DNA of 26,940 bases from a virus (taxonomy: Duplodnaviria; Caudoviricetes): the IMG/VR virus record IMGVR_UViG_3300030110_000658, positions 1 to 26,940 of that record; one strand, given 5' to 3'. This document shows positions 2,321 to 17,471 of the stretch, piece after piece (the first letter of the stretch is position 1; every line of letters starts with the position of its first letter). The notes under the pieces were generated by a model. It had not been told where the DNA came from. It made no database searches and saw only the letters and a program-made list of their open reading frames with translations. The position numbers and the translations under genes were made by a program.

Positions 2321-2806
2321 CAAAATAATTCTGCTATGAGTTCCGTCACTGTTAGCTCTAGCAGCAGTACCAGAACCTCCTAAACTTCTTTTTATTTGAG
2401 TTTTATATGTATGTGTACCAGCACCGGGAGAATCTTCGTGAACAATAGATGCAATGCAACTAGAAGCAACAAAATATGAACCCGAACCGGGTCCACTTGT
2501 TACACAAGCTCTTTCACCTGTGTAAAGAGTGGTAGAACTTCCAGATGTTGTTCTTACAAGTATTAAACCACAACCGGCAAAACCAGTAGCATTATATTGC
2601 CTTGCTTCTAATGATTGAGCTACAAATATTAAAACTTTATTTGTACCAGTTGTAGTAATATTAGCTGTAAGTCCAGTGTCAACATAACTAGAACTAGTAG
2701 TTTCTACCTGACCAGACTTAACCGCACTGACGTTTTGTAAAATTGTACCAAATGGAAAAGCTGAACCATCTGTTTCAGTTATAGCATTAACTTTTAATGT
2801 ACTCAT
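2303..2806 (-). CDS. Tail-fibre-associated beta-rich protein, family A copy 2
   Basis: MSTLKVNAI N-terminus; TGLTANIT, DSPGAGTHTYKTQ and ILMEVSA motifs; ATGA coupling with the upstream gene. Confidence 0.85.
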   Translation of the reverse strand: MSTLKVNAITETDGSAFPFGTILQNVSAVKSGQVETTSSSYVDTGLTANITTTGTNKVLIFVAQSLEARQYNATGFAGCGLILVRTTSGSSTTLYTGERACVTSGPGSGSYFVASSCIASIVHEDSPGAGTHTYKTQIKRSLGGSGTAARANSDGTHSRIILMEVSA

Positions 2807-3120
2807 GGCTTAGGATATTTAGCTTTAACAGCAGCAACGTGATCTTTCCATGTAGTCGTGCCATTAACAGTATCTTTGTACTGCATATCTAACTGATCGC
2901 CAACAGAAGCATAAATTGTGTCTGTAGTACCAGCAGCACCAGTTCTTTGAGATTGATAAAGAATTGCAGCAGCTTCATTATTTAAAGTAACTCTCGCAGC
3001 ATCTATATCAGATTGCGTTAAAGAGATTGCGTTACCGCTTGCATCAAAAGCACCAGCACCATCATCAATCGTAACAGCGTTTGGATAGGCTTTGCGTATC
3101 GCTTCGTGATCTAAGGCCAT
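2803..3120 (-). CDS. Tail-fibre-associated small protein, family B copy 1 (possible assembly chaperone)
   Basis: MALDHEAIR...YASVGDQLDMQY...WKDHVAAVKAKYPKP; paralog of 1519..1806. Confidence 0.85.
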   Translation of the reverse strand: MALDHEAIRKAYPNAVTIDDGAGAFDASGNAISLTQSDIDAARVTLNNEAAAILYQSQRTGAAGTTDTIYASVGDQLDMQYKDTVNGTTTWKDHVAAVKAKYPKP

Positions 3121-3137
3121 AATCAGGTTTTAATTAG

Positions 3138-3145
3138 ATTATACA
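3138..3145 (-). promoter_or_regulatory. Possible -10 box (TG-TATAAT) upstream of gene 2803..3120
   Basis: Perfect TATAAT in a 34-nt intergenic gap, 17 nt before the ATG. No clear -35, and the AT-rich context weakens the call. Confidence 0.35.
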
Positions 3146-3154
3146 TGGAAGTAA

Positions 3155-3172
3155 TCATGCTGACACCTCCAT
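3155..3172. repeat. 18-bp exact direct repeat TCATGCTGACACCTCCAT, copy 2
   Basis: Identical to 2303-2320; the copies are 852 bp apart. Confidence 0.9.
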
Positions 3173-3697
3173 TACTGTAATTCCTGAGGTATCAATACAT
3201 TGACCTCCGCCACCTGTACCATGAGTTTCTCTGTTGATATATATTGTGTTATTTGTTGATTCATCTATGTGTTGTATTTTATAAGTTATTTGATTTGTTG
3301 AACCAGCCGTATCTAAAAAAGAACCAGTAAGGAGATCAGGATAACCTTGGTTAGCACCTGAGCCAGTAACAGGAAATGTAGCTCTTGTTGAACTGCCTGT
3401 AGCACTACCTCTAAATGGATAAGTTGTAGTTCCACTATCAACTTTTGCAAGTAAAAGAGCATGACCACCCCAATGCGTACTTGCTGTTGTAGCTACATGA
3501 ACATGAATAAGAAGTTTGCTAGTAGAAGATGTAGGTGTAATATTTACAGTTAATCCTGTTACATCTTGAGCAGTACTTGTTGAGGTTGCAGAAAAAGCAT
3601 CAGTTTTACTTACTGATACCACTTGTATAATTCCACCACCACCGCCTGTCGGTACACCTGCTACTGGAATTATGCTGTTGACTTTAAGTTGACTCAT
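3155..3697 (-). CDS. Tail-fibre-associated beta-rich protein, family A copy 1
   Basis: MSQLKVNSI N-terminus; TGLTVNITPTSSTSKLLI, TYKIQ and ITVMEVSA motifs; starts 3 nt after the fibre stop. Confidence 0.85.
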   Translation of the reverse strand: MSQLKVNSIIPVAGVPTGGGGGIIQVVSVSKTDAFSATSTSTAQDVTGLTVNITPTSSTSKLLIHVHVATTASTHWGGHALLLAKVDSGTTTYPFRGSATGSSTRATFPVTGSGANQGYPDLLTGSFLDTAGSTNQITYKIQHIDESTNNTIYINRETHGTGGGGQCIDTSGITVMEVSA

Positions 3698-3700
3698 GGT

Positions 3701-6700
3701 TTATACGATTGTAAGAGTTTCATTTGCACCCACTGTAACAGTGTTTCCGCTTGCAATAGTTATAGGCCCTGCTGCCATTGCGTTGCGACCATTGGTAATT
3801 GTGTAATCGGCTGAAACTGTTGTATTGTTTTCGTAGAATACACCACCTTGAGTTACTGCACTAGCAGAGATTTCATAACTTATACCGGGAACTCTAAATT
3901 TAGTATGACTGCTGTTACCAAGAGTAATTTCATTATCAACACCCACTGCACTTGCTAATGCCGCATAACCAATAATTATATTGTTATCGCCAGTAGTTAA
4001 CGCTCCAGTTCCATCAGTTCCATAACCAGCTAGTGCACCTAGAAAACAGTTTTCATCTCCTGTAGTAACGTTATAGCCTGACATCCTTCCAAAGGCTGCG
4101 TTATGGTTACCAGTTGTATCGGAATATAATGACGCTCTTCCTACAGCAGTGTTGCCTTGATAAGGGTTTGAAGTCTGATCATTATAACTATATAAAGCTC
4201 CCTGACCTATAGCAACTGTTTGTCTTGCGTGACTATCAGTTTGTAAAGCTTCCTGACCTATAGCTACGTTAGTATTACCTTCTGCTGCTCTACCAGCACG
4301 GTATCCTATAAAAACACTTGTTTGGTTTCCTCCAGAATTTTGTCCAGCTTCAATTCCAATATAAACGTTATTAAGGACGCTAGAAGTTGCATTTTGACCA
4401 GCAAGGTTTCCGATATAAACTTGGTTTCCACCATCAGTACTAGCATCAGTTAAATCATTTAATGATGATGCACCAGCAGCAGCTGCAAATCCAGCTTCAC
4501 CGTTGGAATCAACTGTTAGTACATGACCAGTAGTTGGTGTACCGCCATTGTCTTTAAGGGTTACGTTAATACCGGGGATTTTAACTTTGGTTATACTAGT
4601 ATTACCAAGGCATATTTGGTTACTGCTATCAGCAGTTGCAATATATCCAATAGAAATTGCATTTGTTAAACCACCTGTATTACCAGCTTCTCTACCTATA
4701 GCAACACATTGAGCTCCACCATTTTTTAAAGCTCTAAAACCAAGAGCAACTGCGTCTGCACCACCAGTGGCATCACGCATAGCTCCCATACCCAAAGCAG
4801 TGTTACCACTACCGCCTTGTGATTGTCCAGCTTTATAACCTACAAAAGTATTATATTCTCCACCAGAGTTTTCTCCACAGAGTGATCCTACATAAACATT
4901 TAATTCTCCACCTTGTTGACTTTTACCAGCTCTATATCCAACCGCAACGTTGTCATAGCCATTAGTAAGATTTGTTAATGACTCTCTTCCTATAGCTACG
5001 TTGTTATCTCCAGTTCCAGCGTCACATGCTTGATAACCAATAGCTATTGTATTGTTTCCAGTACAAGCATAACCAGCTTGATGTCCAACAGCAGTATTAT
5101 TAGCACCTGTGCTAGCACCTAAAGCTGATTGACCTACAGCAACACTATTACTTGCGGTAGTATTAGCGTCTAAAGCATAATTACCTACGGCTACGTTACC
5201 TTCACCAGATGTATTAGCTTTTAACGCTTCAACACCGATAGCAACTATATTTGATTCTGTATGATTTTCACCAGCTTTATAACCTATTAGAACGTTATAA
5301 CTACCTGATGCACAACTTTCTAAAGATTCTGAACCGATCGCAGTATTATAATCTCCGCTTGTTAGAGCTGTACCAGTATTGTATCCATACAATGTATTAT
5401 GATTTGCACTTGTACCACTAAAACTGTCTCCAGCATTAGTACCAGCTACAGTGTTATTTTGAGAATCACTTGTTACACCAGTAGCTATACCTGTTAAGTT
5501 GGAACCGTCTCCACTAAAAGCATTGGCTGTAACAGTGCCAGAAAAATTACCAGCAGCACCCCAAACAGTATGCCATCTATAACCGTTATAACCTAAATGT
5601 ACAGTACCATTATTGTAAGGTAATAAATTTGCATCGCCATCTATTTCTAAATACTTAGAATTTAATCTTTCAAATTTAATTACACCATTACCAGTATGTT
5701 TTATACCTAATTGACCAGTAGTGCTGTTTATTTCAGTATTTGTGCCATTATGAAATATCTCTAAATCATTACCAGTTCCAAATCTAGCTTTTACGCTATC
5801 GTTAAAATCAACTCCAGTAGATCCTCCTACACCAGCAGGGACAGTTGCCCATGTAAGACCACCTGTATTACCAGACTGTGCTGATAAGAAGTAGCCATTA
5901 GTAGGTGAGTTAGATACCTTTAAGTTTGCTTCGTCTACTACGTTGTCCGCAATAGTTAAAGCACCACTACCTGTAACTTCTCCTGAGTGAGTAGCGTTGG
6001 TTGTAATACCACTAACTGTTGAGTTAAGTGCAGCAATGTCTACACCATCAACTGTTCCTGTAACTGTTATGTTTCCTGTTACATCAAGACCACTATTACA
6101 ATCTACATTTGTATTAAAATCAAAAGTACCATCTGATGCAAGAGAAAGTCTGACAGCACTATTACTTTCATCTTGTATTGCAAAGTTACCACTATTAACA
6201 ACTATAGAATAATCTGAGTCTTCGTTTGTATCAGTAAATATTAATTTAGGTGCAGTATTACTTATCGTCTGCGTTCCTGTAAACGTGTTACTAGTTAAAG
6301 CAGCCAAGTTACTAGTATTAGTTACACCCTGTACCCAACCTGATCCAGTATGTATTCTTAACTCATTATGTGTCGTGTTAAAGTATAAATCTCCAGCAGC
6401 TAGTGTATTACCTCCACCATCTGTTGATGGGTTAGAAGACGCTATTTGATATTGGTCTGCAAAATTATTAACGTCACTAATATTACCTGCAACTGTATTA
6501 ACGTTACTTATAGAACCAGCAACTGTTGTGATGTTACTGTTAGCTCCAGCTACTGTTGTGATGTTGGAGTTAGCTCCGGCAACTGTAGTTATATTACTGT
6601 TGTTACCAGCTACCGTGTTTATATTACTTGCGTTAGATACAGCAGCATTAATGTTACTTGCATTAGATACTGCACTATTTATATTGCTTGAGTTGTTTGC

Positions 6701-9109
6701 TACAGAAGTTACGTTAGATGAGATACCAGCTACTGTTGTTATATTTGCTGAAATGTCAGCTAGTGTATCCATATCAGATACAATTGCTGAAGTAGCCAAC
6801 GTATTCATATCAGCTACAACATCTGTCGTACCAAGTATTGCTAAGTCTGCAACAGCATCCGCTGTACCTAATCTGCCTATCTCTGTTGCCTTACCAGCTA
6901 CAGTACCTATATCAGTTGCATCCGCTGCAACAGCATTAATGTTTGTAGTATTACCAGCTACAGTTGTAACATTAGATGATATGCCAGCCACAGTTGTAAC
7001 GTTTCCAGATACACCAGCTACCGTGTTTATGTTGCTTGCATTGCTAACAACTGAATTGATATTAGATGTGTTTGCTCCAGCAGCAGCAATGTTGGTTGCG
7101 TTTGTAGCTACAGTTGTAACCTCTGTTGCTTTTGGTACTAATCTATGAAAAGTATAAGTATTAAGTGTACTGGTTGTTTCTACAAGTAAACCGTATCCAG
7201 CACTGTAAGTTGTACTGTTTGCTGTTCCTGTAATAGTTACAGTAGAATTTCCAACAGTTCCGTTAGAAATAGTTATAACACCACTACCACTAGATGTATG
7301 GTTAGAAGCTAAAGTAGATATACTAACAATAGTTCCTGTACCGTTTTCAGCATCAGGGTTAGCATTTGGAAAACTTGTTTCGTTTGCTATTGGTACAAAA
7401 CCACCAACATCATCTACAAGATCAATAATCCTGTCGTTGATAGCTGCGGTTGTAGCAATAGTTGTATCGTTATCTGGAAATGTATCGCCATCTTTTATTG
7501 TATCGCCTGTACTTACATTAAAATATCTAGCGTCAGATTCTGTTTCTGTATAGTATCTACCGTCTAATGCACCTGTTGCTATTTCACTAGAAGTTAACTT
7601 GTCAGACTGTAGTAGTGTTTTTATTTCACTTGCTGTCTGGTCGGCTGTAGCAGATGCTTCAATACCAGCTAATTTACTTTGTTCAGCATCAGAAAACTCA
7701 TTAGTATCTGAGTTTGATTCATATAAAGTTTTTATCTCACTAGCAGTTTGATCTGCTGTAGCAGCAGCTTCTATACCGTCTAGTTTGCTGTGATCTGCGT
7801 CAGTAAAGACATTACTGTTAGATGCAGCTTCTACTGCTGTTCTTATTTCAGCATTAGTAGGATTTACTTCAGCACCAGTTTCTATCCCATCTAGCTTGTC
7901 GTGGTGAGTTGTAGACATCACACCAGCAGCAGAGCTAGTTGCTTCTCCTATTGTTGCATTAGTTCCATCACTACTATTGATAACGACTGATGCAGTAGCT
8001 GTAGTAGTACTAAGGTTTGTTGTTACGTTTGTGACCTTTGCATTGTTAGCTGTTATGTCAGAAACAATAGAGTTTGCAAGCTTATCTGTAGTAACCGCAT
8101 CATCAGCTAATTTTGCTGTTGTTATCTGACCATCTGTTATGTTAGCAATACCTGCTGCTGCTGATGTAATCCTACCTTGTGCATCTACTGTGATGTTTGC
8201 ACTATTGTATGTACCAGCAGTTACAGAAGTGTTTGCCAGTTTAGCAGCAGTAACTGCATCATTAGCTATATGTTCTGTATCTATACTGCCATCTGAATAA
8301 TGTTCAGAATTAATAGCATTGTCAGCTATCTTTGCACTAACTATTGCGTCAGCAGCAATTTTAGAAGTAGTAACTGCATCTTGTGCAATTGTTAAAGCTT
8401 CACTTCCAGTGACATCACCTGTATGAGTTACATTACTAATTGTATTATTTAATTTTGTATGATCTGCATCTGTAAAAACATTGCTATCACTAGCACTTTC
8501 TACTAAAGTTCTTATTTCTGCTGCTGTTTGGTCTGCGGTGGCATTGCTTTCAATTCCATCTAATTTAGTACCGTCTGCACTTACGTCTCTACCATCAACC
8601 GTTGCAGATACACTAAGATCACCAGAACCGTCAAATACTAAAGTTTTGTTTGCACGAGTAGCTGCATTTTCTGTTATTTCTAAACCACCAACAGTTTGTG
8701 TTAACGGAAATCTAATAGTTTTATCTAATATGCTTTGTTGTTGTTGATCTAAAATTACCGCTTTATCTAATACATCATTTATAACTTCTGGAAAAAATCC
8801 ACCTTGGTTTGTTATTTCTGTTAGTTGTAATGGACTAACCTTAGATGTAATAACAATGTTATATCCACTAGCTAAATTTTGTGCACTACCACTAGAAACT
8901 AAAGTTACAGTACCACCGGGGTTTGCATTTTGATCATCGTTAAGAGTAACAGTATAATTTGTAGTTATTGTTAATACTGTTTCTGCACCATTACTAGTTT
9001 GTATCTGTATAACTTTTACATCGCCAACTTCATATACTTTAAAAGCAAAAGCAAAATTATTACCACTAGTAAACGCAGTAGTCTGGCGAGTTGTAGTATT
9101 TATTGCCAT
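3701..9109 (-). CDS. Long tail fibre protein (1802 aa)
   Basis: N-terminal podovirus fibre attachment domain (FAFAFKVYEVGDVKV...TNQGGFFPEVINDVLDK); KLDGIE..ATADQT..EI repeats; 10-aa AVTTAKLADD and NITTVAG repeats; about 14-aa N.AVG..AL repeats resembling YadA-type heads; located after the internal virion genes. Confidence 0.92.
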   Translation of the reverse strand: MAINTTTRQTTAFTSGNNFAFAFKVYEVGDVKVIQIQTSNGAETVLTITTNYTVTLNDDQNANPGGTVTLVSSGSAQNLASGYNIVITSKVSPLQLTEITNQGGFFPEVINDVLDKAVILDQQQQSILDKTIRFPLTQTVGGLEITENAATRANKTLVFDGSGDLSVSATVDGRDVSADGTKLDGIESNATADQTAAEIRTLVESASDSNVFTDADHTKLNNTISNVTHTGDVTGSEALTIAQDAVTTSKIAADAIVSAKIADNAINSEHYSDGSIDTEHIANDAVTAAKLANTSVTAGTYNSANITVDAQGRITSAAAGIANITDGQITTAKLADDAVTTDKLANSIVSDITANNAKVTNVTTNLSTTTATASVVINSSDGTNATIGEATSSAAGVMSTTHHDKLDGIETGAEVNPTNAEIRTAVEAASNSNVFTDADHSKLDGIEAAATADQTASEIKTLYESNSDTNEFSDAEQSKLAGIEASATADQTASEIKTLLQSDKLTSSEIATGALDGRYYTETESDARYFNVSTGDTIKDGDTFPDNDTTIATTAAINDRIIDLVDDVGGFVPIANETSFPNANPDAENGTGTIVSISTLASNHTSSGSGVITISNGTVGNSTVTITGTANSTTYSAGYGLLVETTSTLNTYTFHRLVPKATEVTTVATNATNIAAAGANTSNINSVVSNASNINTVAGVSGNVTTVAGISSNVTTVAGNTTNINAVAADATDIGTVAGKATEIGRLGTADAVADLAILGTTDVVADMNTLATSAIVSDMDTLADISANITTVAGISSNVTSVANNSSNINSAVSNASNINAAVSNASNINTVAGNNSNITTVAGANSNITTVAGANSNITTVAGSISNVNTVAGNISDVNNFADQYQIASSNPSTDGGGNTLAAGDLYFNTTHNELRIHTGSGWVQGVTNTSNLAALTSNTFTGTQTISNTAPKLIFTDTNEDSDYSIVVNSGNFAIQDESNSAVRLSLASDGTFDFNTNVDCNSGLDVTGNITVTGTVDGVDIAALNSTVSGITTNATHSGEVTGSGALTIADNVVDEANLKVSNSPTNGYFLSAQSGNTGGLTWATVPAGVGGSTGVDFNDSVKARFGTGNDLEIFHNGTNTEINSTTGQLGIKHTGNGVIKFERLNSKYLEIDGDANLLPYNNGTVHLGYNGYRWHTVWGAAGNFSGTVTANAFSGDGSNLTGIATGVTSDSQNNTVAGTNAGDSFSGTSANHNTLYGYNTGTALTSGDYNTAIGSESLESCASGSYNVLIGYKAGENHTESNIVAIGVEALKANTSGEGNVAVGNYALDANTTASNSVAVGQSALGASTGANNTAVGHQAGYACTGNNTIAIGYQACDAGTGDNNVAIGRESLTNLTNGYDNVAVGYRAGKSQQGGELNVYVGSLCGENSGGEYNTFVGYKAGQSQGGSGNTALGMGAMRDATGGADAVALGFRALKNGGAQCVAIGREAGNTGGLTNAISIGYIATADSSNQICLGNTSITKVKIPGINVTLKDNGGTPTTGHVLTVDSNGEAGFAAAAGASSLNDLTDASTDGGNQVYIGNLAGQNATSSVLNNVYIGIEAGQNSGGNQTSVFIGYRAGRAAEGNTNVAIGQEALQTDSHARQTVAIGQGALYSYNDQTSNPYQGNTAVGRASLYSDTTGNHNAAFGRMSGYNVTTGDENCFLGALAGYGTDGTGALTTGDNNIIIGYAALASAVGVDNEITLGNSSHTKFRVPGISYEISASAVTQGGVFYENNTTVSADYTITNGRNAMAAGPITIASGNTVTVGANETLTIV
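3900..5480 (-). repeat. Two blocks of ~14-aa N..[VI]G..A[GL] beta-roll repeats resembling trimeric adhesin heads
   Basis: NTAIGSESL, NVAVGNYAL, NTAVGHQAG, NVAIGQEAL, NTAVGRASL and others. Each block ends in a similar neck (NQICLGNTSITKVKIPGI; NEITLGNSSHTKFRVPGI). Confidence 0.85.
6470..7130 (-). repeat. Degenerate 30-bp (10-aa) tandem repeats, NINTVAG/NITTVAG type, in the fibre shaft
   Basis: Clear 30-nt periodicity at about 6480-6750 and 6930-7130, for example ccagc-aactgttgtgatgtt followed by ccagc-tactgttgtgatgtt. Confidence 0.9.
7600..8580 (-). repeat. KL[DA]GIE..ATADQT..EI[RK]T repeats (~38 aa unit, about four copies) separated by AVTT.K[IL]A decapeptide repeats
   Basis: Visible in the translation; one copy at about 8455-8575 and a tandem group at about 7600-7900. 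Confidence 0.85.
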
Positions 9110-9173: not shown

Positions 9174-12100
9174 TTATTCCCTACTTCTGCGACTAGCTTT
9201 ACCTGTAATCAATGCTCTAATATGATCTGGTAGATTTTGTGGATCAACAACACCTCTTTCTATATCTATTTGTACTCCCACTGGTCTGCCTAATATAGTA
9301 AATGGTATACCAGTACTTAAAGACATTAAAGTTAAAATATCTCGTACATTTTTACCTGTAATTTCTTTATCAGGATCAGCAGCATTTATAAGAAATCTAG
9401 CAGTACCTACACCTGCTGCTTCTAAAGTTGAAATAGATGGACTTGTAGTTATACGATCATCATAAGGTAAATCATTAAATGAATTAAATGGCACAATAGC
9501 TATGTTTCCAAAAGGCACAAGTGCAGCAGCAGATCTAAATTGCGAACCAAAAAACCAACTTGCAACATCATCTATATAACCGTCTTCATCTTCATCATCT
9601 AAGTCACCACCTGTTGCCCTAACAATTAGATCTGCAACAAAAGCTGGCATACCAAAACCTAACAAATAAGTCATAAACAATTGTCCTTTCGTTCCTTGCC
9701 ATCCAAGATCGTTAAATAATTTTTTATATTGTGTAGCATTTAAATTTGCAATCATATTAAAGTAACCACCAAATTGCACCATAGTTTTATAAAAAGGTGA
9801 ACCAACTTGAAATGCTGCTAAATCTTCTGCTTGTAAACTATCTTGTGTTAAACGTACATTTGCATCTGCTTGTTGTATAGCTTCTTTTTGTACTTCTGTT
9901 TCAGACATTGTCTTTGGACTTTCTGTTAATACTTTGTTGTAAGAAGCAGCCCATACAACAGTATCAACCTGATTTTGAAATGCTTGTTGTATAAAATATC
10001 CATGTCTTTCTGCCCATTTTTGTATTTTCTTAAACTGATTTGGATTTAGTAATAATTGATTTAATGTATCTTGCACATCAAATATTTGGTTAAATTGACG
10101 TTCTTTCATATATGGTGATAGTTCAGCTATTTCTTCTTGTTGTTTCATAGGATTTTGTAAATATGTGCCTAATGCTCCTTTTAAATATTTAGGTTCTACT
10201 TTTATCATTGCAGGGAAATATCCTGTCAACTGCTGCAATGCGTTTCTTATATTTGCAAACATTATACCAATACCTGTTCTAGCTCTAACAGCTAACCAAA
10301 ATTTATTAAAGCCTTTAAATCTACCGGGAACCATTGTTATCTGTCGAGCAGAACGATTAAGCCAAGGCATTAATGCATCGTCCATAATTGTTGGATCTAA
10401 TTCTGATAGCCTATTTGCAAATCTTTTATTTTTTAAAATTTTAAATACATCTTCTATTGCAGGTTGTACAAATGCAAAACGCAAAGCGTCATCTATATGT
10501 TTAGTCATTAACCGCAAATCTAAAGATAGTGGCTTATTGTACTCCACACGTTCTTTTGTAAAACCATTACCAGTAGAGGGTAATGATTGTCTAAATTCAC
10601 TTCTTAAGTCTTCTAATTTTGCCTTAACTTCTGTTTCGCCAACCATAAAAGGATCTGTTTTTGCAGGTACATATCCACCTCTAAATGAACCAAATCTATT
10701 AACTATAGGTGTAGCTTCTACTTCTTTAAAATAATATCCATATACATCGCTATGTGCTCTCTGTATGAGTGGTTTCATTTGCTCGTTAAGATCCCATACT
10801 TCTTGTAAAAACACATAATCTTCATTAGTTAAAATTCCTTCGTTTATCATACGATCTACAAAAGTATTCCATTTAGTTGTATTTAATGAGCCATCTTCAT
10901 TAATATCTGCCCAACCTCTACCTAATAATAATTTGCGTAAATTACTAGTATTTCCAGTATGCAACATAGCTCCAAGCAATTCAGCTTTACCATACCCACC
11001 GTTAGCACTGCCAAATGTATAATCAAATTCTCCAGACATAATTTTAGTTTGAGGTATATCTAGTTTGCCTATCATTTCTGAATATTTTTTTGTGTAATTA
11101 GCTCTTTCTATTCTGTATTGATTAAGTGCATCTTTTACTGGTCTCCAAATATATCTGGTAAATGCACCTGCTTGTACCTCGTCACGTTTTAATACAACAC
11201 TACCTATTAATCCTTCTCCAGTTTTAGTTGCACCGTCCATACCATCTGCCCAATGTTCAATGCGTCTAACCATTGCTTTACCTTGTTGCATTGTTCTTAA
11301 AAATCTAATTTTGGTATCTGGTGCTTCTGCTACTCCTACAGGAGTTGGTGTTTCCATTCTTGACATGACACTAAGTAATTCATCTACTACCGCATCTACT
11401 TTTACTTTTTTGCCATCTATAATAACTTGCTTATCTCTTTTTGATTGATACCACAATGTTTGAATCATTTCGTAAAGAGTATCAAATTCTTCTCCTGTTA
11501 AGTCTTTTATGTCTTGAATATCTTTATTTGTAAGGTCTTCTATTAATGGATTTAACTGCTCAAACATATCAGGATTATAAGCTTTTAATTTTTCTGTATA
11601 TGCTGAAGGTTTATCTACAACAGGGCCAAGTCCATAAGCAGCCAATATAGCTTTAGCTGCACTAGTTAAATCTGTATTCCTATCTAAATCTGCTATTTTT
11701 TTGTCTGGTTGAAATACCTTTTTAAATAGCTTTTGTGCATCATCAAATGTTTTATGAATTTCTAATGCTTCTTTAGCTAACTGGTTATTTAATAATTGTG
11801 ATTTTTTAGCTTTAATGGCAGCAGCAGTGTCAGCTTTTTTCATTGCTGCTTCAACAGCTTTTGCTGCTTTTATTTCATTGCGACTAAATTGTGATGGTCT
11901 TATATCTCTTAATTTCTTTTTAGCTAATAATTCTTTTGCAACTTGTCTAGCAGCAGCGACTTGATATCTAACTGGCTGCATAGATTTAGATATAAACCGT
12001 AATTCAACAGATATAAATCTTGCTCTAGCTTCATTATGTATTGCTTCTTGTACTTGTAATTCTTGTCTTCTTGGATCACTTAAATCACTGTATTCATTAA

Positions 12101-15100
12101 GCATACGTTGATCTGTACGTTCCCTAACTACTTCTTTCATTGGCTGCATACTTACTAACGCATTAATCATTTCTATTGAATCAGTAAATCCAAACATATC
12201 AGCAATCATTTGTATAGGCATCCCTTCTTTCCCAACCATGCGTTGCCTACGCAATTGTTGTATTTCAGACTTCATGTCATAAAAAGGTATTAAATCTTGT
12301 AATGAATCAATTGCTATTTTGTAACCTGATCCAGCTACAACTCTTTCTCCTTGTTTATTTGTAAATTCACCACGTTTTAAAAATGCTTGCAATTGATATA
12401 ATTTTTCTTTTTCAATTTTATTTGTTTCTTCTTGCATAACTTTTTTTCTAGTTTTTGATTCATTTCTTTGTAAATTTTTAATGTATTTATCTTTGGCATT
12501 TTCTAACCATTTTACTTGTCGCACACTAGCTTGAGTTAATTGTTCCATTGATTTATCTTCTGCTTCTTGCATTGCTTTTGTATAGTTATTCCATGTTGCG
12601 TCATCCATACCACTTTCTTCTTGTGTTTGGAACATAGCCTTCATTCCGTATATTTGTTCGGCTTGTGATATTTGTTCTTCACTAGCTATCATGCGATCCA
12701 TAACACTTCTTATTTCGTCAGTTAGAATTGGCAAATCTGTACCGTTTTCTTTTCTATATATCACATTTAATTCATCTCTAATTGATCTGTATATTCTGCG
12801 TAAAAATCTACTAAATCTAGTAAATATTTCTTGTAATTTTATGTTGGGAGCTTTTCCTTCAAATAAATAAATTTCATAATTATAAGCAAAACTTTCATGA
12901 AATTTTCTTTTTTCTTGTATAGATAATTGACTCCAAGATTCGACATCTGCAACATTAAAAAATTTTAAAAGAGTTTGAAAATCATCTGTTTGCTGTTGTG
13001 ATGCTTGATCAGACATTGCTATGTCTTCCATAACAGTTAACATATAATGTGCTGTCTCATGTAAAAACGTAGAAAAATCAGATTCTTTTGTTAATACTGT
13101 AGTTAAAGTTTTTGGATCAAAACCACCTCTTATACCGTCAGGATTTGCTTGCTGTAAAAATTCTCCTACTTTTACTTGAATAGACCCTCTAGGCTTTCCA
13201 ACTGAGAGTCTGAAATCTCTTCGTCCGTTTGGGAATTCATCATCGAGACTAAGTCGAGAAGGTTCGACTCTGATTGCAACTGCGGTATCACCGTAGCCAG
13301 TATCTGTGATAGCTCTGGTGGTAACGTAGACATCAGGTTCGCCAGCACTTCTAAGTTGACCTGTGGCTCTGATTTGTTCTGCTGCTTTTCTGCTGGTGTG
13401 GTGATAGACGGTAACTGTTCCGTCTGCATTAAGGGGGAGTTCTGTGGCTTCGTCAATTCTTCCTTGTTGTTGGAAAGTTCTTCCAACATCTGTGTTATCT
13501 GCTCGTCCTGTACCATCTCGTTGTGTTGTTGCTGCAAGCTCATCGGATTGTAACTGTAACTCATTATCAACCTCCTGTAATTTAGTTTGTATAAGGTCAT
13601 TTGCTATACCTAGTTTAGCAGCAAACCCAACCGCAGCATTAGCATAATCTGGTGCTTCATTATCGGCATAACCTGTTTCTACTGCTGTCTCTTTTAATTT
13701 TGCTGAGTCATATAATTTTTTTTCTGGATACCATACAAGTGCTTGCAAATCTGCCATTGTTAATTCTGGCTCTGTTTGTTGCATTGTTTCCAATACTTGT
13801 GTAAATACTTTTACAATATTTCTTCTTTCTGGAGCACCACTAGGAGCTTCTTTTTGTCCATCATTATCTTTAGCTAATAAATTACCTCTTTTACGCAATA
13901 AATCACCAAGACTTAATGTCTTATCACCTTTTCTAGGTTGACCCATTATGTCTAAAAATATTTGCTCATGCTTAGAATCCTCTGCAAATGTTGCAATTTT
14001 TGCCATAGCAACACGATTAGCAGGTGCAGTAGATGCGTTCTTAATTGCTAAAGCTACGTTATCAATATCACCTAATGAAAGTTTTCTTTTTATTATTGCT
14101 TCAAATGCTTTCTTTTGTTCTTTAGTTAATGACCTAATAATTTGTTGTATATGATTTCGTTTTATTCTTGCTTGTTTTGTTTTGTCCGTAACTAAAGTAG
14201 CTGTTACACGACCCCATGTACGCATTAACCATCTATCCATAGTTAACTGCTCATAATTACCATATAAATTTGCAAAAAACCCATTACCAATTTTTGGCCC
14301 TGCTATTGCAGCACCATAAACTTGTTCATCTAATCCATAACCACCACCTACTTTTATTTGTTTTCCATTTTTATTTTTTCCAACATATTGTTGTACTTCT
14401 CTTACCGTATGCATTGTTCTCATAAATTCTTCTAATTCTGCAAAAGGTTTTTCATCTAATAATTTATTCATGTTTTTAAAAGCTATTTCCATAGCTTCTC
14501 TAGCTTCACCGCCTTGTTCAAACACTTCTGGTAATGCATTGTTTTCTTTATAAAAAGCATATACTTGTTCTGCTAGTTCAAAGTTTTTATCAACTTTTAT
14601 ACCGTTAGATGTAACTGCTAATGCCCATTTAAAAATAAAATTAGATTTAACATCAGTCGCAATCTCAGGGTGAATTATTGATAACACACCTAATGCTTTA
14701 TTTACTTTTTCGTTGTACCAACCAACTGCATTTGCATTTTCTTGTAAAGCAAAACGTGCGTCATCTAATAAAGTTTGTACAAGGTATTTTTCTACTTCTA
14801 CAGTAAATTGAGAAACATCTACTTTAGCTTTTTTAGCTTCTTCTTTTATACGGTTTTGTATTTCTAATTTAAAATCTCGGTTGGTTGCAAAAGGTTTACT
14901 AGCTGCAAAGTCAAAATTTTCTACAATTCGTGCTATTTGAAATACAGCCTGTGGTATTGGTTTACCTTTTTTTTGTTTACCTCTCTGTGCCAATATTTCT
15001 TGTACTTGTTGTTTATATATATTTGCTATCTCTGTATTCCATGTGCCGCTATTCATTGTTGATTTAACTGCTTTAGGATCAAATACAACTATTTCTTTTA

Positions 15101-17471
15101 CATCTCTCATTTCACCGGGCATTATTGCACCGTCATGTCCTTTTGCAATAAGGTTATCTCTAAATTGATCTGCCGTTACTTGTCCTGATCTAACTAATTC
15201 TTTATCATCTAAAGTTGCTTCGTATGGATTTTCTAAACGTACATACAAAGGCATAATAATTGGATCTGTAGGCCCGGCAGGTAAACGACCATCTTTAATT
15301 CTTAGTTTTTTTAATTTTGTATATTCTTGAGCTAAAAGAATATTATCAGTTACATAAACTCCAGTACCTAACCAGCCACTATCTAATCTTTTTGGATGAT
15401 CTAATTTAAATTCACTAATGCTGTCTGTAGTACCGTGGTAAACAACCTGTGGTGTGCCATCAGGATTTTTTAATACAGATTTGCCAAAAAACTTTTTAAA
15501 CTCAGGTGTGTCTAATTTGACTGACCCATCTTGGTTAAATAATTGTTGTTCTGGCGATATATTAAATTTTTCATCAGTAGTTATGTTGTAAAAATATTTA
15601 CTAAAAAATTCACTAGGTTTTATTTTTAATTGGTTTGCTTGGGTAACTACAAAATCCCTAACAAATGTAGATAAAAATTTTGTTTGATTTGGTGTATAAA
15701 CACCAGTTTCTTTTAATTGATTACTTATGTTTTCACGAATTGTATTAGCATCTTTTCTTATTTCGTCTGTTTGTTCTTTTTGTTGGTTTAATATTTGTTC
15801 TGCTTCTTTTTGCAAAGTTTCCCTTTCATTTGCAAATTGACCTGCTTCTGCTGCACTCATGCTGTCTTGAGTAACACGCATATGCGGTTGCAATGCAGTG
15901 CCTAATTGTGTACCAGCAATTTTTGCAGCATATGTTCCTGTTGGTATTGCTACATCACCTTGTCCACCTGTACCATTTATTTCTTTTAAATCATTTGCTA
16001 TTTCTGGAGAAAACATTTCTAGTTGCTCCATTGTGATGCCATTATCTCTTAGCTGTTGATTAAAAATTTCTGCATCTACAAAAATGTTTGGTACTTCTTT
16101 ATCATTTGCAACGTCCTGTATATACGATTGAAATAATGTTGGATTTCTTTGTTTTGTTTTACTTGTAGTAGATGCATTAGTTAAAGAATCAATAAATGCA
16201 GAATCTTTTGTTGCTTTTTTTGCTTTAGTTACATTAGTGACAAAGGTAGGGCTTGCACTTATACCAGCAAGAGGAAGCATACCAGTAGCAACCATTTCAA
16301 ACACAGCAGCAAGTCTTTGTGATATTTCTGCTCTTCCTTCTTTTGTGTCTAACTTACTTTCAAACTCACCTGTGTCAAAATACTTAGCAAAATCTTCACC
16401 TGCAATATTTACTAATTCTTGAAGTTGTTCAGTACCTACTTCTGTTGCCCAATTACGAAAAGCTACAGTTCCTGTTTTGCGTAATACCTGTACCATCGTA
16501 GGTTTAATTAAAGACTTGTTAACTTCTTGCATTGTCTCTCTTATTAATAAACTTTTAATTGGTGCTGCAACTGTACTTAAACCAACAAATTCTAATCCAC
16601 CATTTACAAGACCAACTGCAACACCAACATTTCTAGCTACATCATGAGAAATACCCATATCTATTAGGGCATTATATTGATGACCTGCTTCTATCATTGT
16701 TGATTCTTTAGCAGAACCAGTTGTCATACCCCATACAAATCCAGTAATAATGCCACCTTTTACAGTAATAGGTGCAAATGGGCCACCCATTAATCCTAAA
16801 GTTCCACCTGTTGATGCACCTGCAAGTCCAAATTTTACTGACTCTTGCATAGTCTTAGACCATTGACCACCTATAGTAAAAGTGTTTTCCCATAGTCCAG
16901 ATCCATCGCCTTCTAATTCTTCTAGCCTTACACCTATTTCTTGTATGCGTTTATCTATTATTTCATTAGATAAACCTTGCTCAACATTAAGTGCTTTTTG
17001 AAAACCTAGTTTGCCTTGTTCAGCTTGCAACCTACCTTTTTCAAAACCTTGTGCTGCATTCTCAGGAAAATTTTGTATACCAGTAAAAGCACCTTCTAAT
17101 AAACCTAATTGTTCTACATTATCTTGTGCTATTGCTGCAAAATTAGGATCAGTTAAATGACGCATCAATATTGGATTTGTATTAGCTAAATCCAACGAAT
17201 ATATGTTTTGTTCTTTATTTCTTTTTTTTAATATATCTAAAGTTTGTTGACTTTCTAAAGCAACTCCAGATGGTAAATCTAAACGCTCTGCTAATTTTTG
17301 TGCTTCACCTGTTTTGTCTGGATCTAACGAAGAAACTGTGTATAATATTTGTTTTAATTTTTTTTCTCTTTCTTTATTTTCTTGTTCATATAATTGCTCT
17401 AATGGATTAGTAGCTTCATAATTTTGACTTGGTGCAAAGTTATAAAGATTATCTAGTCTATTTTCAGACAT
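9174..17471 (-). CDS. Giant internal virion (ejection) polyvalent protein, 2765 aa
   Basis: Last and largest of three genes between nozzle and fibre. LPD22-like N-terminus (~17080-17370); Gly-rich hydrophobic segment (~16710-16835); ART-PolyVal-like domain YHGT...GVYVT...IVVFDP (~15055-15515); HhH-glycosylase-like domain (~13700-14800); second ART-like domain YHHTS...VYVT (~13175-13425); HETAH zincin-like motif (~13047-13061); helical C-terminus. Confidence 0.9.
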   Translation of the reverse strand: MSENRLDNLYNFAPSQNYEATNPLEQLYEQENKEREKKLKQILYTVSSLDPDKTGEAQKLAERLDLPSGVALESQQTLDILKKRNKEQNIYSLDLANTNPILMRHLTDPNFAAIAQDNVEQLGLLEGAFTGIQNFPENAAQGFEKGRLQAEQGKLGFQKALNVEQGLSNEIIDKRIQEIGVRLEELEGDGSGLWENTFTIGGQWSKTMQESVKFGLAGASTGGTLGLMGGPFAPITVKGGIITGFVWGMTTGSAKESTMIEAGHQYNALIDMGISHDVARNVGVAVGLVNGGLEFVGLSTVAAPIKSLLIRETMQEVNKSLIKPTMVQVLRKTGTVAFRNWATEVGTEQLQELVNIAGEDFAKYFDTGEFESKLDTKEGRAEISQRLAAVFEMVATGMLPLAGISASPTFVTNVTKAKKATKDSAFIDSLTNASTTSKTKQRNPTLFQSYIQDVANDKEVPNIFVDAEIFNQQLRDNGITMEQLEMFSPEIANDLKEINGTGGQGDVAIPTGTYAAKIAGTQLGTALQPHMRVTQDSMSAAEAGQFANERETLQKEAEQILNQQKEQTDEIRKDANTIRENISNQLKETGVYTPNQTKFLSTFVRDFVVTQANQLKIKPSEFFSKYFYNITTDEKFNISPEQQLFNQDGSVKLDTPEFKKFFGKSVLKNPDGTPQVVYHGTTDSISEFKLDHPKRLDSGWLGTGVYVTDNILLAQEYTKLKKLRIKDGRLPAGPTDPIIMPLYVRLENPYEATLDDKELVRSGQVTADQFRDNLIAKGHDGAIMPGEMRDVKEIVVFDPKAVKSTMNSGTWNTEIANIYKQQVQEILAQRGKQKKGKPIPQAVFQIARIVENFDFAASKPFATNRDFKLEIQNRIKEEAKKAKVDVSQFTVEVEKYLVQTLLDDARFALQENANAVGWYNEKVNKALGVLSIIHPEIATDVKSNFIFKWALAVTSNGIKVDKNFELAEQVYAFYKENNALPEVFEQGGEAREAMEIAFKNMNKLLDEKPFAELEEFMRTMHTVREVQQYVGKNKNGKQIKVGGGYGLDEQVYGAAIAGPKIGNGFFANLYGNYEQLTMDRWLMRTWGRVTATLVTDKTKQARIKRNHIQQIIRSLTKEQKKAFEAIIKRKLSLGDIDNVALAIKNASTAPANRVAMAKIATFAEDSKHEQIFLDIMGQPRKGDKTLSLGDLLRKRGNLLAKDNDGQKEAPSGAPERRNIVKVFTQVLETMQQTEPELTMADLQALVWYPEKKLYDSAKLKETAVETGYADNEAPDYANAAVGFAAKLGIANDLIQTKLQEVDNELQLQSDELAATTQRDGTGRADNTDVGRTFQQQGRIDEATELPLNADGTVTVYHHTSRKAAEQIRATGQLRSAGEPDVYVTTRAITDTGYGDTAVAIRVEPSRLSLDDEFPNGRRDFRLSVGKPRGSIQVKVGEFLQQANPDGIRGGFDPKTLTTVLTKESDFSTFLHETAHYMLTVMEDIAMSDQASQQQTDDFQTLLKFFNVADVESWSQLSIQEKRKFHESFAYNYEIYLFEGKAPNIKLQEIFTRFSRFLRRIYRSIRDELNVIYRKENGTDLPILTDEIRSVMDRMIASEEQISQAEQIYGMKAMFQTQEESGMDDATWNNYTKAMQEAEDKSMEQLTQASVRQVKWLENAKDKYIKNLQRNESKTRKKVMQEETNKIEKEKLYQLQAFLKRGEFTNKQGERVVAGSGYKIAIDSLQDLIPFYDMKSEIQQLRRQRMVGKEGMPIQMIADMFGFTDSIEMINALVSMQPMKEVVRERTDQRMLNEYSDLSDPRRQELQVQEAIHNEARARFISVELRFISKSMQPVRYQVAAARQVAKELLAKKKLRDIRPSQFSRNEIKAAKAVEAAMKKADTAAAIKAKKSQLLNNQLAKEALEIHKTFDDAQKLFKKVFQPDKKIADLDRNTDLTSAAKAILAAYGLGPVVDKPSAYTEKLKAYNPDMFEQLNPLIEDLTNKDIQDIKDLTGEEFDTLYEMIQTLWYQSKRDKQVIIDGKKVKVDAVVDELLSVMSRMETPTPVGVAEAPDTKIRFLRTMQQGKAMVRRIEHWADGMDGATKTGEGLIGSVVLKRDEVQAGAFTRYIWRPVKDALNQYRIERANYTKKYSEMIGKLDIPQTKIMSGEFDYTFGSANGGYGKAELLGAMLHTGNTSNLRKLLLGRGWADINEDGSLNTTKWNTFVDRMINEGILTNEDYVFLQEVWDLNEQMKPLIQRAHSDVYGYYFKEVEATPIVNRFGSFRGGYVPAKTDPFMVGETEVKAKLEDLRSEFRQSLPSTGNGFTKERVEYNKPLSLDLRLMTKHIDDALRFAFVQPAIEDVFKILKNKRFANRLSELDPTIMDDALMPWLNRSARQITMVPGRFKGFNKFWLAVRARTGIGIMFANIRNALQQLTGYFPAMIKVEPKYLKGALGTYLQNPMKQQEEIAELSPYMKERQFNQIFDVQDTLNQLLLNPNQFKKIQKWAERHGYFIQQAFQNQVDTVVWAASYNKVLTESPKTMSETEVQKEAIQQADANVRLTQDSLQAEDLAAFQVGSPFYKTMVQFGGYFNMIANLNATQYKKLFNDLGWQGTKGQLFMTYLLGFGMPAFVADLIVRATGGDLDDEDEDGYIDDVASWFFGSQFRSAAALVPFGNIAIVPFNSFNDLPYDDRITTSPSISTLEAAGVGTARFLINAADPDKEITGKNVRDILTLMSLSTGIPFTILGRPVGVQIDIERGVVDPQNLPDHIRALITGKASRRSRE
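13172..13564 (-). CDS. Nested +1-frame gene encoding a 130-aa acidic, probably helical protein (candidate antitoxin or immunity protein)
   Basis: AGGAGG-TTGATA-ATG at 13576-13562; frame open to TAA at 13174-13172; covers the linker and second ART-like domain; local GC rise and avoidance of NTA codons in the host frame. Confidence 0.75.
   Translation of the reverse strand: MSYSYNPMSLQQQHNEMVQDEQITQMLEELSNNKEELTKPQNSPLMQTEQLPSITTPAEKQQNKSEPQVNLEVLANLMSTLPPELSQILATVIPQLQSESNLLDLVSMMNSQTDEEISDSQLESLEGLFK

Follow-up and report, generated by a model that had tools for sequence, protein, structure and literature searches.

Genomic context and domain organization of the giant gene

The window is a 26.9-kb virus record. 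Its minus strand carries a podovirus-like structural module composed of a protease, a GP7-type capsid protein, Bbp16, tail proteins, an internal-virion protein, an 865-aa ORF, a 2765-aa gene and a tail-fibre gene. The giant gene (9174..17471, minus strand), referred to as the host gene, encodes a polyvalent protein of 2765 aa with LPD22, ART-PolyVal and phrog_9880 matches, and phrog_418, phrog_376 and phrog_212 were found around it. Its location between the internal-virion and tail-fibre genes of the module points to an ejection role for the product. The LPD22 domain (aa 47-134; 17070..17333, minus strand; Pfam E 1.3e-13) is followed by a first ART domain, ART-PolyVal (aa 671-808; 15048..15461, minus strand; Pfam E 1.3e-13). 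Next comes a DUF7178-like domain ending in APDYANAA (aa 831-1300; 13572..14981, minus strand), a putative HhH-type DNA glycosylase/lyase which is called the upstream domain here. A second ART-fold domain is situated behind it (aa 1340-1439; 13155..13454, minus strand). The phrog_9880 match covers aa 1440-2759 of the giant protein. An HExxH motif seen in the sequence after the second ART domain (HETAH, aa 1471-1475; 13047..13061, minus strand) presumably marks a zincin-like domain. Across the first ART domain no long ORF was found in the +1 frame, and the four genes neighbouring the giant gene showed no further long same-strand nested frame. A search for promoter-like sites in 13100-14100 gave none. 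Two antisense ORFs on the plus strand, one of 189 aa over the giant gene (10165-10734) and one of 206 aa over the tail-fibre gene (6528-7148), are probably shadows. As far as the main text of PMC5512222 describes them, the 2765-aa product fits the polyvalent proteins.

A nested +1-frame gene spans the domain boundary

The nested gene (13172..13564, minus strand) encodes 130 aa in the +1 frame of the host gene, from an ATG at 13564-13562 to a TAA at 13174-13172. Its Shine-Dalgarno sequence AGGAGG (13571..13576, minus strand) is written in the host codons CAG GAG G, 6 nt before the ATG, exactly as the first-pass annotation had described for a 130-codon ORF opened by SD-N6-ATG inside the 2765-aa gene. 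That annotation had also placed the ORF on the ART domain. This holds for about 94 of its 131 codons, because the start lies 37 codons ahead of ART, where the preceding domain ends. The stop-free +1 stretch around the ORF is 143 codons long while the next longest in the giant gene is 51, in a frame with 252 stops in total. If the protein is kept and codons are drawn at the usage of the giant gene, the overlap should contain 8.8 +1 stops (P of none ~8e-7), and none of 20,000 simulated overlaps was free of +1 stops.

The composition of the overlap is also distinct. The GC counts given earlier were reproduced exactly (116/240 at 13201-13440 and 63/240 at 12781-13020), and the codon-choice claim holds: A is the last base in 0 of 15 Leu, Ile and Val codons that precede A or G within the overlap vs 222 of 353 outside. 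The GC rise comes from third-position C and not G (C17, G1 at four-fold sites), in line with a coding constraint in the +1 frame. A donor of higher GC may have contributed as well, given that ART homologues lacking the ORF mostly sit in loci of GC 0.50-0.69. Neither chance nor pure GC import was accepted as sole explanation; the stop expectation, the selection in the +1 frame and the conserved start speak against both. A near-perfect inverted repeat at 13468-13488 (plus strand), within the overlap and terminator-like on the non-coding strand, is at chance level (0.8 expected).

The nested protein is acidic, as noted before, with a pI of 4.05 (range 4.05-4.19). Its predicted structure (mean pLDDT 67.5) begins with a helix, continues as a disordered spacer and ends in four helices. 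The acidic N-terminal helix with its S-x-Q-Q/E-E-H-N-E motif (13466..13564, minus strand) recurs in nested ORFs of phages without the ART domain, and the host frame across it is unconstrained linker. The C-terminal four-helix part (nested aa 71-129; 13178..13354, minus strand) lies over the ART core and is specific to a marine clade; its blocks reach pLDDT 80-88. Fold searches with the nested model gave no clear match (best Z 5.0, nothing at E<=0.001) and none for the C-terminal part. Searches by sequence returned no Pfam match and one weak PHROGs match. A search for stand-alone homologues retrieved 68 proteins of 68-242 aa, all resembling the same nested family.

Conservation of and selection on the nested frame

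Homologues were collected from 361 loci, and removal of duplicates and incomplete cores left 151 distinct cores. The +1 frame is open in 128 and closed in 23 of them, in a set biased to open loci as two of the searches feeding it used the nested protein as seed. A search seeded with the host protein (80 loci) gave the same picture, L078 being the single closed locus and L003 falling short by 11 codons. Among the open cores the stop is situated at host codon 1433 in 120 of 128, the stop codon being TAA in 79 and TAG in 49, and each contains 5 or more stops in +2. The start codon, anchored on a host motif, was scorable in 124 of 127 loci and was present in all 124 as ATG (87), TTG (30) or GTG (7), always at the same spacing from the SD. 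These swaps change host residues. AGGAGG is intact in 121 of the 128 open cores, and the Glu codon in it is GAG in 123 of 124 loci vs 10% elsewhere. In-frame +1 stops directly precede the nested start in most loci. The expectation of a conserved ORF with its own SD was thus borne out.

Suppression of synonymous variation, which had been anticipated as well, was observed among 73 sequences, where four-fold-site differences amount to 0.056 (linker) and 0.18 (ART core) vs 0.39 and 0.44 in the flanks. Frame-wise dN/dS was estimated from 36 disjoint pairs. In the linker, which holds the 5' part of the ORF, it is 0.31 in the +1 frame vs 1.39 in the host frame. The host frame shows the lower value over the middle spacer (host codons 1340-1372; host 0.47, +1 0.88) and over host codons 1373-1432 (host 0.40, +1 0.64), and the control +1 values in the flanks are 0.91-0.98. 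Nested changes at host-synonymous sites have a BLOSUM score of -1.71 against -1.86 expected, with similar values in the flanks. No stable RNA structure was found at the nested start (z 0.93). RNA runs showed shares of 0.05-0.07 and yielded short, sparse contigs only. Taken from sequence comparison, the nested gene is very probably real, and it is likely translated separately, from the mRNA of the giant protein.

The overlapped second ART domain

The model of the second ART domain (pLDDT 87.9) matched best to TreTu (7zhl; Z 7.3, rmsd 2.6, 81 aligned), followed by 6b, Tpt1 and others. All twelve rows at Z>=5 are titled as ART-type toxin, Tpt1 or related; the Z values are middling and the list is consistent. 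Foldseek matches of the model had E>0.001, and Tox-ART-HYD1 was matched weakly by 22 of 67 members of the family. The family has 729 representatives at E<=0.001, and in the best 150 of these the H, Y and D are conserved in 148, 147 and 149, respectively. The predicted ART fold with intact H1357, Y1382 and D1410-D1411-E1412, the strand assignment of which was taken from the model, agrees with the earlier description of the domain as ART-like and suggests a predicted H-Y-D/E ART domain. Tblastn of the region against annotated phages gave no match. The domain is mobile, being found at many positions within large proteins and once as stand-alone. The latter case (L263/L264) is a 113-aa ORF of an AT-rich phage with the +1 frame closed. 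L358, from a metagenome-assembled genome, has an ART homologue that is interrupted by in-frame stops and appears decayed. The ART His or Tyr is altered in 11 of 127 cores with the nested ORF intact. Such loss of ART residues with retention of the ORF was seen in L159, L177 and the L101-L110 group; in the L101 group the otherwise invariant ART Glu is also replaced, and the changes in the nested protein are conservative.

The upstream domain is a distant relative of DUF7178

The Atlas assigned the upstream domain (0.96) to a cluster with 33% PF23802. DUF7178 (PF23802) was matched by 29 of 61 members at E<=0.5, the best at 1.4e-4 and all below the cut-off of 27, and the window protein itself gave no match to Pfam DUF7178. 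HHalign of the domain to a DUF7178 member gave E 2e-5. Judged from these profile comparisons, the upstream domain is a distant DUF7178 relative. Residue conservation analysis showed invariant W-Y, S, K1060, D1079, W, R and Q-A-W-E, with K1060 and D1079 invariant in 76 of 76 and 19 apart. This Lys-Asp spacing is reminiscent of K249/D268 in OGG1 and also of Nth, a putative equivalence judged by eye. With DUF7178 excluded, Ogg-HhH and AGOG came up as weak Atlas leads (0.77). PDB sequence searches with the domain were empty, and HHalign to small Nth/MutY profiles was not significant. An enzyme of DNA glycosylase type is a plausible and unproven assignment.

The nested gene accompanies the upstream domain

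Distribution of the nested ORF was compared with that of both domains. Apart from 7 cores left out of the classing for insufficient in-frame upstream sequence, the +1 frame is open in 123 of 124 ART cores with an adjacent upstream domain and closed in 19 of 20 without it. The upstream domain is adjacent to ART in only 3 of the best 150 of the 729 family representatives. A pattern scan for APDYANAA, the end of the preceding domain, listed at least 120 of ~370 loci, and the matches listed comprise 109 distinct loci, of which 34 have ART, 71 are without ART and 4 are too short. The first-pass annotation had proposed that the nested gene moves with ART as a cassette, with loss of the ORF predicted where ART is missing. 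The ART-less loci contradict this, as 70 of 71 among the matches listed still have an open +1 frame at this site (codons 31-51 after APDY). The +2 frame over the same codons is open in 32 of 71. Other +1 windows of ART-less loci are open in 16/70, 29/70, 61/70, 18/44 and 24/44 of the matches listed, the 61/70 being the +1 control at -30 to -10.

A profile of the first 33 nested residues gave 8 matches at E<0.005 among 4670 six-frame segments of ART-less loci, all of them in the +1 frame and at codons 31-33 after the motif. The N-terminal motif, defined post hoc, is present in 41 of 70 ART-less loci vs 0-1 of 70 controls among the matches listed. In 17 ART-less pairs dN/dS is 0.40 in the +1 frame vs 0.72 in the host frame, and 1.25 in the +1 frame just upstream. 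Beyond the first helix the nested products diverge widely, and only 46 of 70 ART-less products among the matches listed are net acidic over codons 30-55. The upstream domain and the nested ORF co-occur across at least six different downstream domains, which we label GNAT-like, zincin-like, JAB-like and others by motif. The nested tail varies along with the following domain, and a form of ~71 aa is common to 27 loci with their own conserved C-terminal motif. For the GNAT-like follower no clean case without the upstream domain was found (24 with both, 5 truncated, 1 deletion-like).

A cultured member of this group is Limnohabitans phage DC33 (L481, PQ492659.1). Its CDS XLZ15523.1 contains an unannotated 71-codon +1 ORF just after locus position 7293, opened by AAGGAG-N6-ATG, and two Manatee Spring phages have the same layout. 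The words 'overlap' and 'proteom' are absent from the available text of the DC33 paper (PMC12195039).

Individual loci extend this pattern. L267 has both domains adjacent and a short nested ORF with the motif, which stops before ART. L242 possesses a 153-codon open +1 frame over ART (~2800-3250, GGAG-N6-ATG, GC 0.49) and no upstream domain; it falls among closed rows in the ART tree and is perhaps an independent overprinting. After the distant upstream-type domains of L484 and L512 no such ORF was evident. A distant upstream-domain relative in L513 is followed, after position 3236, by a long open +1 frame over the linker. L385, L389, L394, L412, L418 and L472 have another acidic product encoded in +1 behind the upstream domain, with the motif DWDLL..L..EEEGQ. 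In L540 the upstream domain is in frame with the nested ORF after an apparent deletion, possibly an assembly error. On this comparison of sequences, the nested gene appears to track the upstream DUF7178-like domain and not ART, and therefore likely encodes a partner or inhibitor of that domain.

Evolutionary history of the overlap

In a quick, midpoint-rooted tree of the upstream domain, 29 ART-bearing marine rows formed one group (SH-aLRT 100). Two rows classed as 'other' lie inside it, L331 with a broken frame and L422 with a cut locus. The midpoint-rooted ART tree grouped 26 open marine rows (92/87) among closed ones. The simplest order would be that the nested gene came first, that ART was then inserted into the linker and that the nested gene was finally extended over ART. 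The ancestral nested gene would have started within the terminal helix of the upstream domain and continued for 40-100 codons through the linker, so that the host 'linker' may largely be the other-frame reading of the nested gene. The ART insertion presumably happened within one AT-rich marine clade, and loss of +1 stops would then have extended the gene over ART with gain of a new four-helix C-terminal part. L304 and L305 represent the same locus twice on one 69-kb contig, possibly a concatenated assembly.

Possible role of the nested protein

We tentatively propose, at a little short of an even chance, that the nested protein, a product of the late mRNA alongside the giant protein, uses its acidic N-terminal helix to bind the upstream domain and silences a DNA-acting enzyme in the producing cell. 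The upstream domain would be that enzyme, a putative glycosylase kept silent by the acidic protein while phage DNA is copied and packaged. Inhibition would act by charge or DNA mimicry through the N-terminal helix, and the nested protein would stay behind when the giant protein enters the next host. The charge contrast (pI 4.05-4.19 for the nested protein vs 9.0 for the upstream domain) is consistent with such binding. The linkage may also be positional only, because the codons for the final helix of the upstream domain supply the SD and start. The C-terminal bundle, which is under selection over ART, would also allow a secondary contact with ART. An extension of the proposal, which we regard as doubtful, is that ejection proteins carry immunity genes in their +1 frame, that this inhibitor, regrown over the inserted ART, may neutralise both effectors and that polyvalent 'linkers' are the read-throughs of such genes.

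The helical and acidic product and its place within the virion module would equally suit an assembly chaperone or a small internal-core or ejection helper, coupled in expression and without inhibition. This is rather unlikely, as the start and N-terminal motif are tied to one domain despite very different downstream domains and ejection proteins with ART but without the upstream domain have no ORF. The same strict tie would go unexplained if the product were an independent small protein against a host target late in infection, borrowing the mRNA and a permissive linker. The variable C-termini favour that reading, and small acidic proteins are often DNA mimics against host enzymes in the excerpted literature on them, yet we consider it improbable. 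Several observations do point to the antitoxin or chaperone of the overlapped ART, moving as a cassette, which was proposed initially: the ART fold with its H-Y-D is present, the nearest fold TreTu was solved together with its immunity protein, 120 of 128 open cores share a stop at the ART end, the nested C-terminal part is under selection (+1 dN/dS 0.64) and L242 has an open +1 frame across ART. However, ART occurs without the ORF in 19 of 20 cores and the ORF without ART in 70 of 71 loci among the matches listed, the ORF of L267 ends ahead of ART, the ORF is kept where the ART His, Tyr or Glu is lost, and both proteins are acidic (ART pI 5.6). The antitoxin identity is accordingly given a low probability, similar to that of the host-directed protein.

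It is very improbable that there is no separate product and that a frameshift isoform, a pause site or an RNA-level constraint explains the locus. The RNA evidence, consisting of short contigs only, would agree with this. The start codons, on the other hand, swap between ATG, TTG and GTG at fixed SD spacing in 124 of 124 loci at the cost of host residues, +1 stops stand in frame directly before them in most loci, selection acts at the codon level in +1 and the start lacks stable structure. Silencing of the upstream domain is retained as the working proposal.

Comparison with known systems

In phage lambda, the spanin gene Rz1 is nested in the +1 frame of Rz with its own start, and the two products are partners. 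The gene described here is likewise contained entirely in another phage gene, is read in +1 and has its own start. Unlike Rz1, it is a 130-codon gene in the middle of an 8.3-kb multidomain gene, lies across a domain boundary and varies in length with the following domain. The upstream domain resembles DUF7178 in its sub-cut-off Pfam matches, and its Lys and Asp 19 apart may correspond to those of the HhH-GPD glycosylases (Nth, OGG1); it differs in its size (~450 aa), its large insertions and the non-significant match to Nth/MutY profiles. The immunity genes of the Rhs ART toxins in TreTu/TriTu and RhsP2/RhsI2 are separate and downstream. These pairs (PDB 7zhl, 7zhm, 7rt7) include the closest folds to the overlapped domain; in contrast to them, no immunity protein was matched by the nested model, and the distribution of the ORF does not track that of the ART family.

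The giant protein shares with the polyvalent proteins of PMC5512222, as described in its main text, the giant injected architecture, LPD22, H-Y-D ART domains and a zincin-like motif. The words 'overlap', 'glycosylase' and 'linker' are absent from that main text, and the excerpts considered mention no nested partner gene; the upstream domain may be listed under another name in the supplements. Ugi, p56 and SAUGI are, according to excerpts of PMC3711442 and PMC3902945, acidic DNA-mimic inhibitors of host uracil-DNA glycosylase encoded by stand-alone genes. The nested protein is similarly small and acidic and may be their functional analogue, although no likeness to them in sequence or fold was found.

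No publication on these nested genes was found in the open-licence literature. Because gene callers miss such genes, abundant aquatic phages, cultured DC33 included, harbour a family of small proteins that goes unannotated. The locus bears on how phages produce injected enzymes without damage to their own DNA. It also presents what may be overprinting in progress, in which a nested gene already in place would have been lengthened across a folded domain that was inserted later. In one subclade the conserved ART residues are changed while the nested protein is conserved. The comparison singles out one candidate partner and supplies a host-phage pair suitable for tests, Limnohabitans sp. DCL3 with DC33. 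Nested phage genes were already known, and the present case differs in that a predicted folded enzyme domain is overprinted, the co-occurrence partner is clear and a cultured system is at hand for tests.
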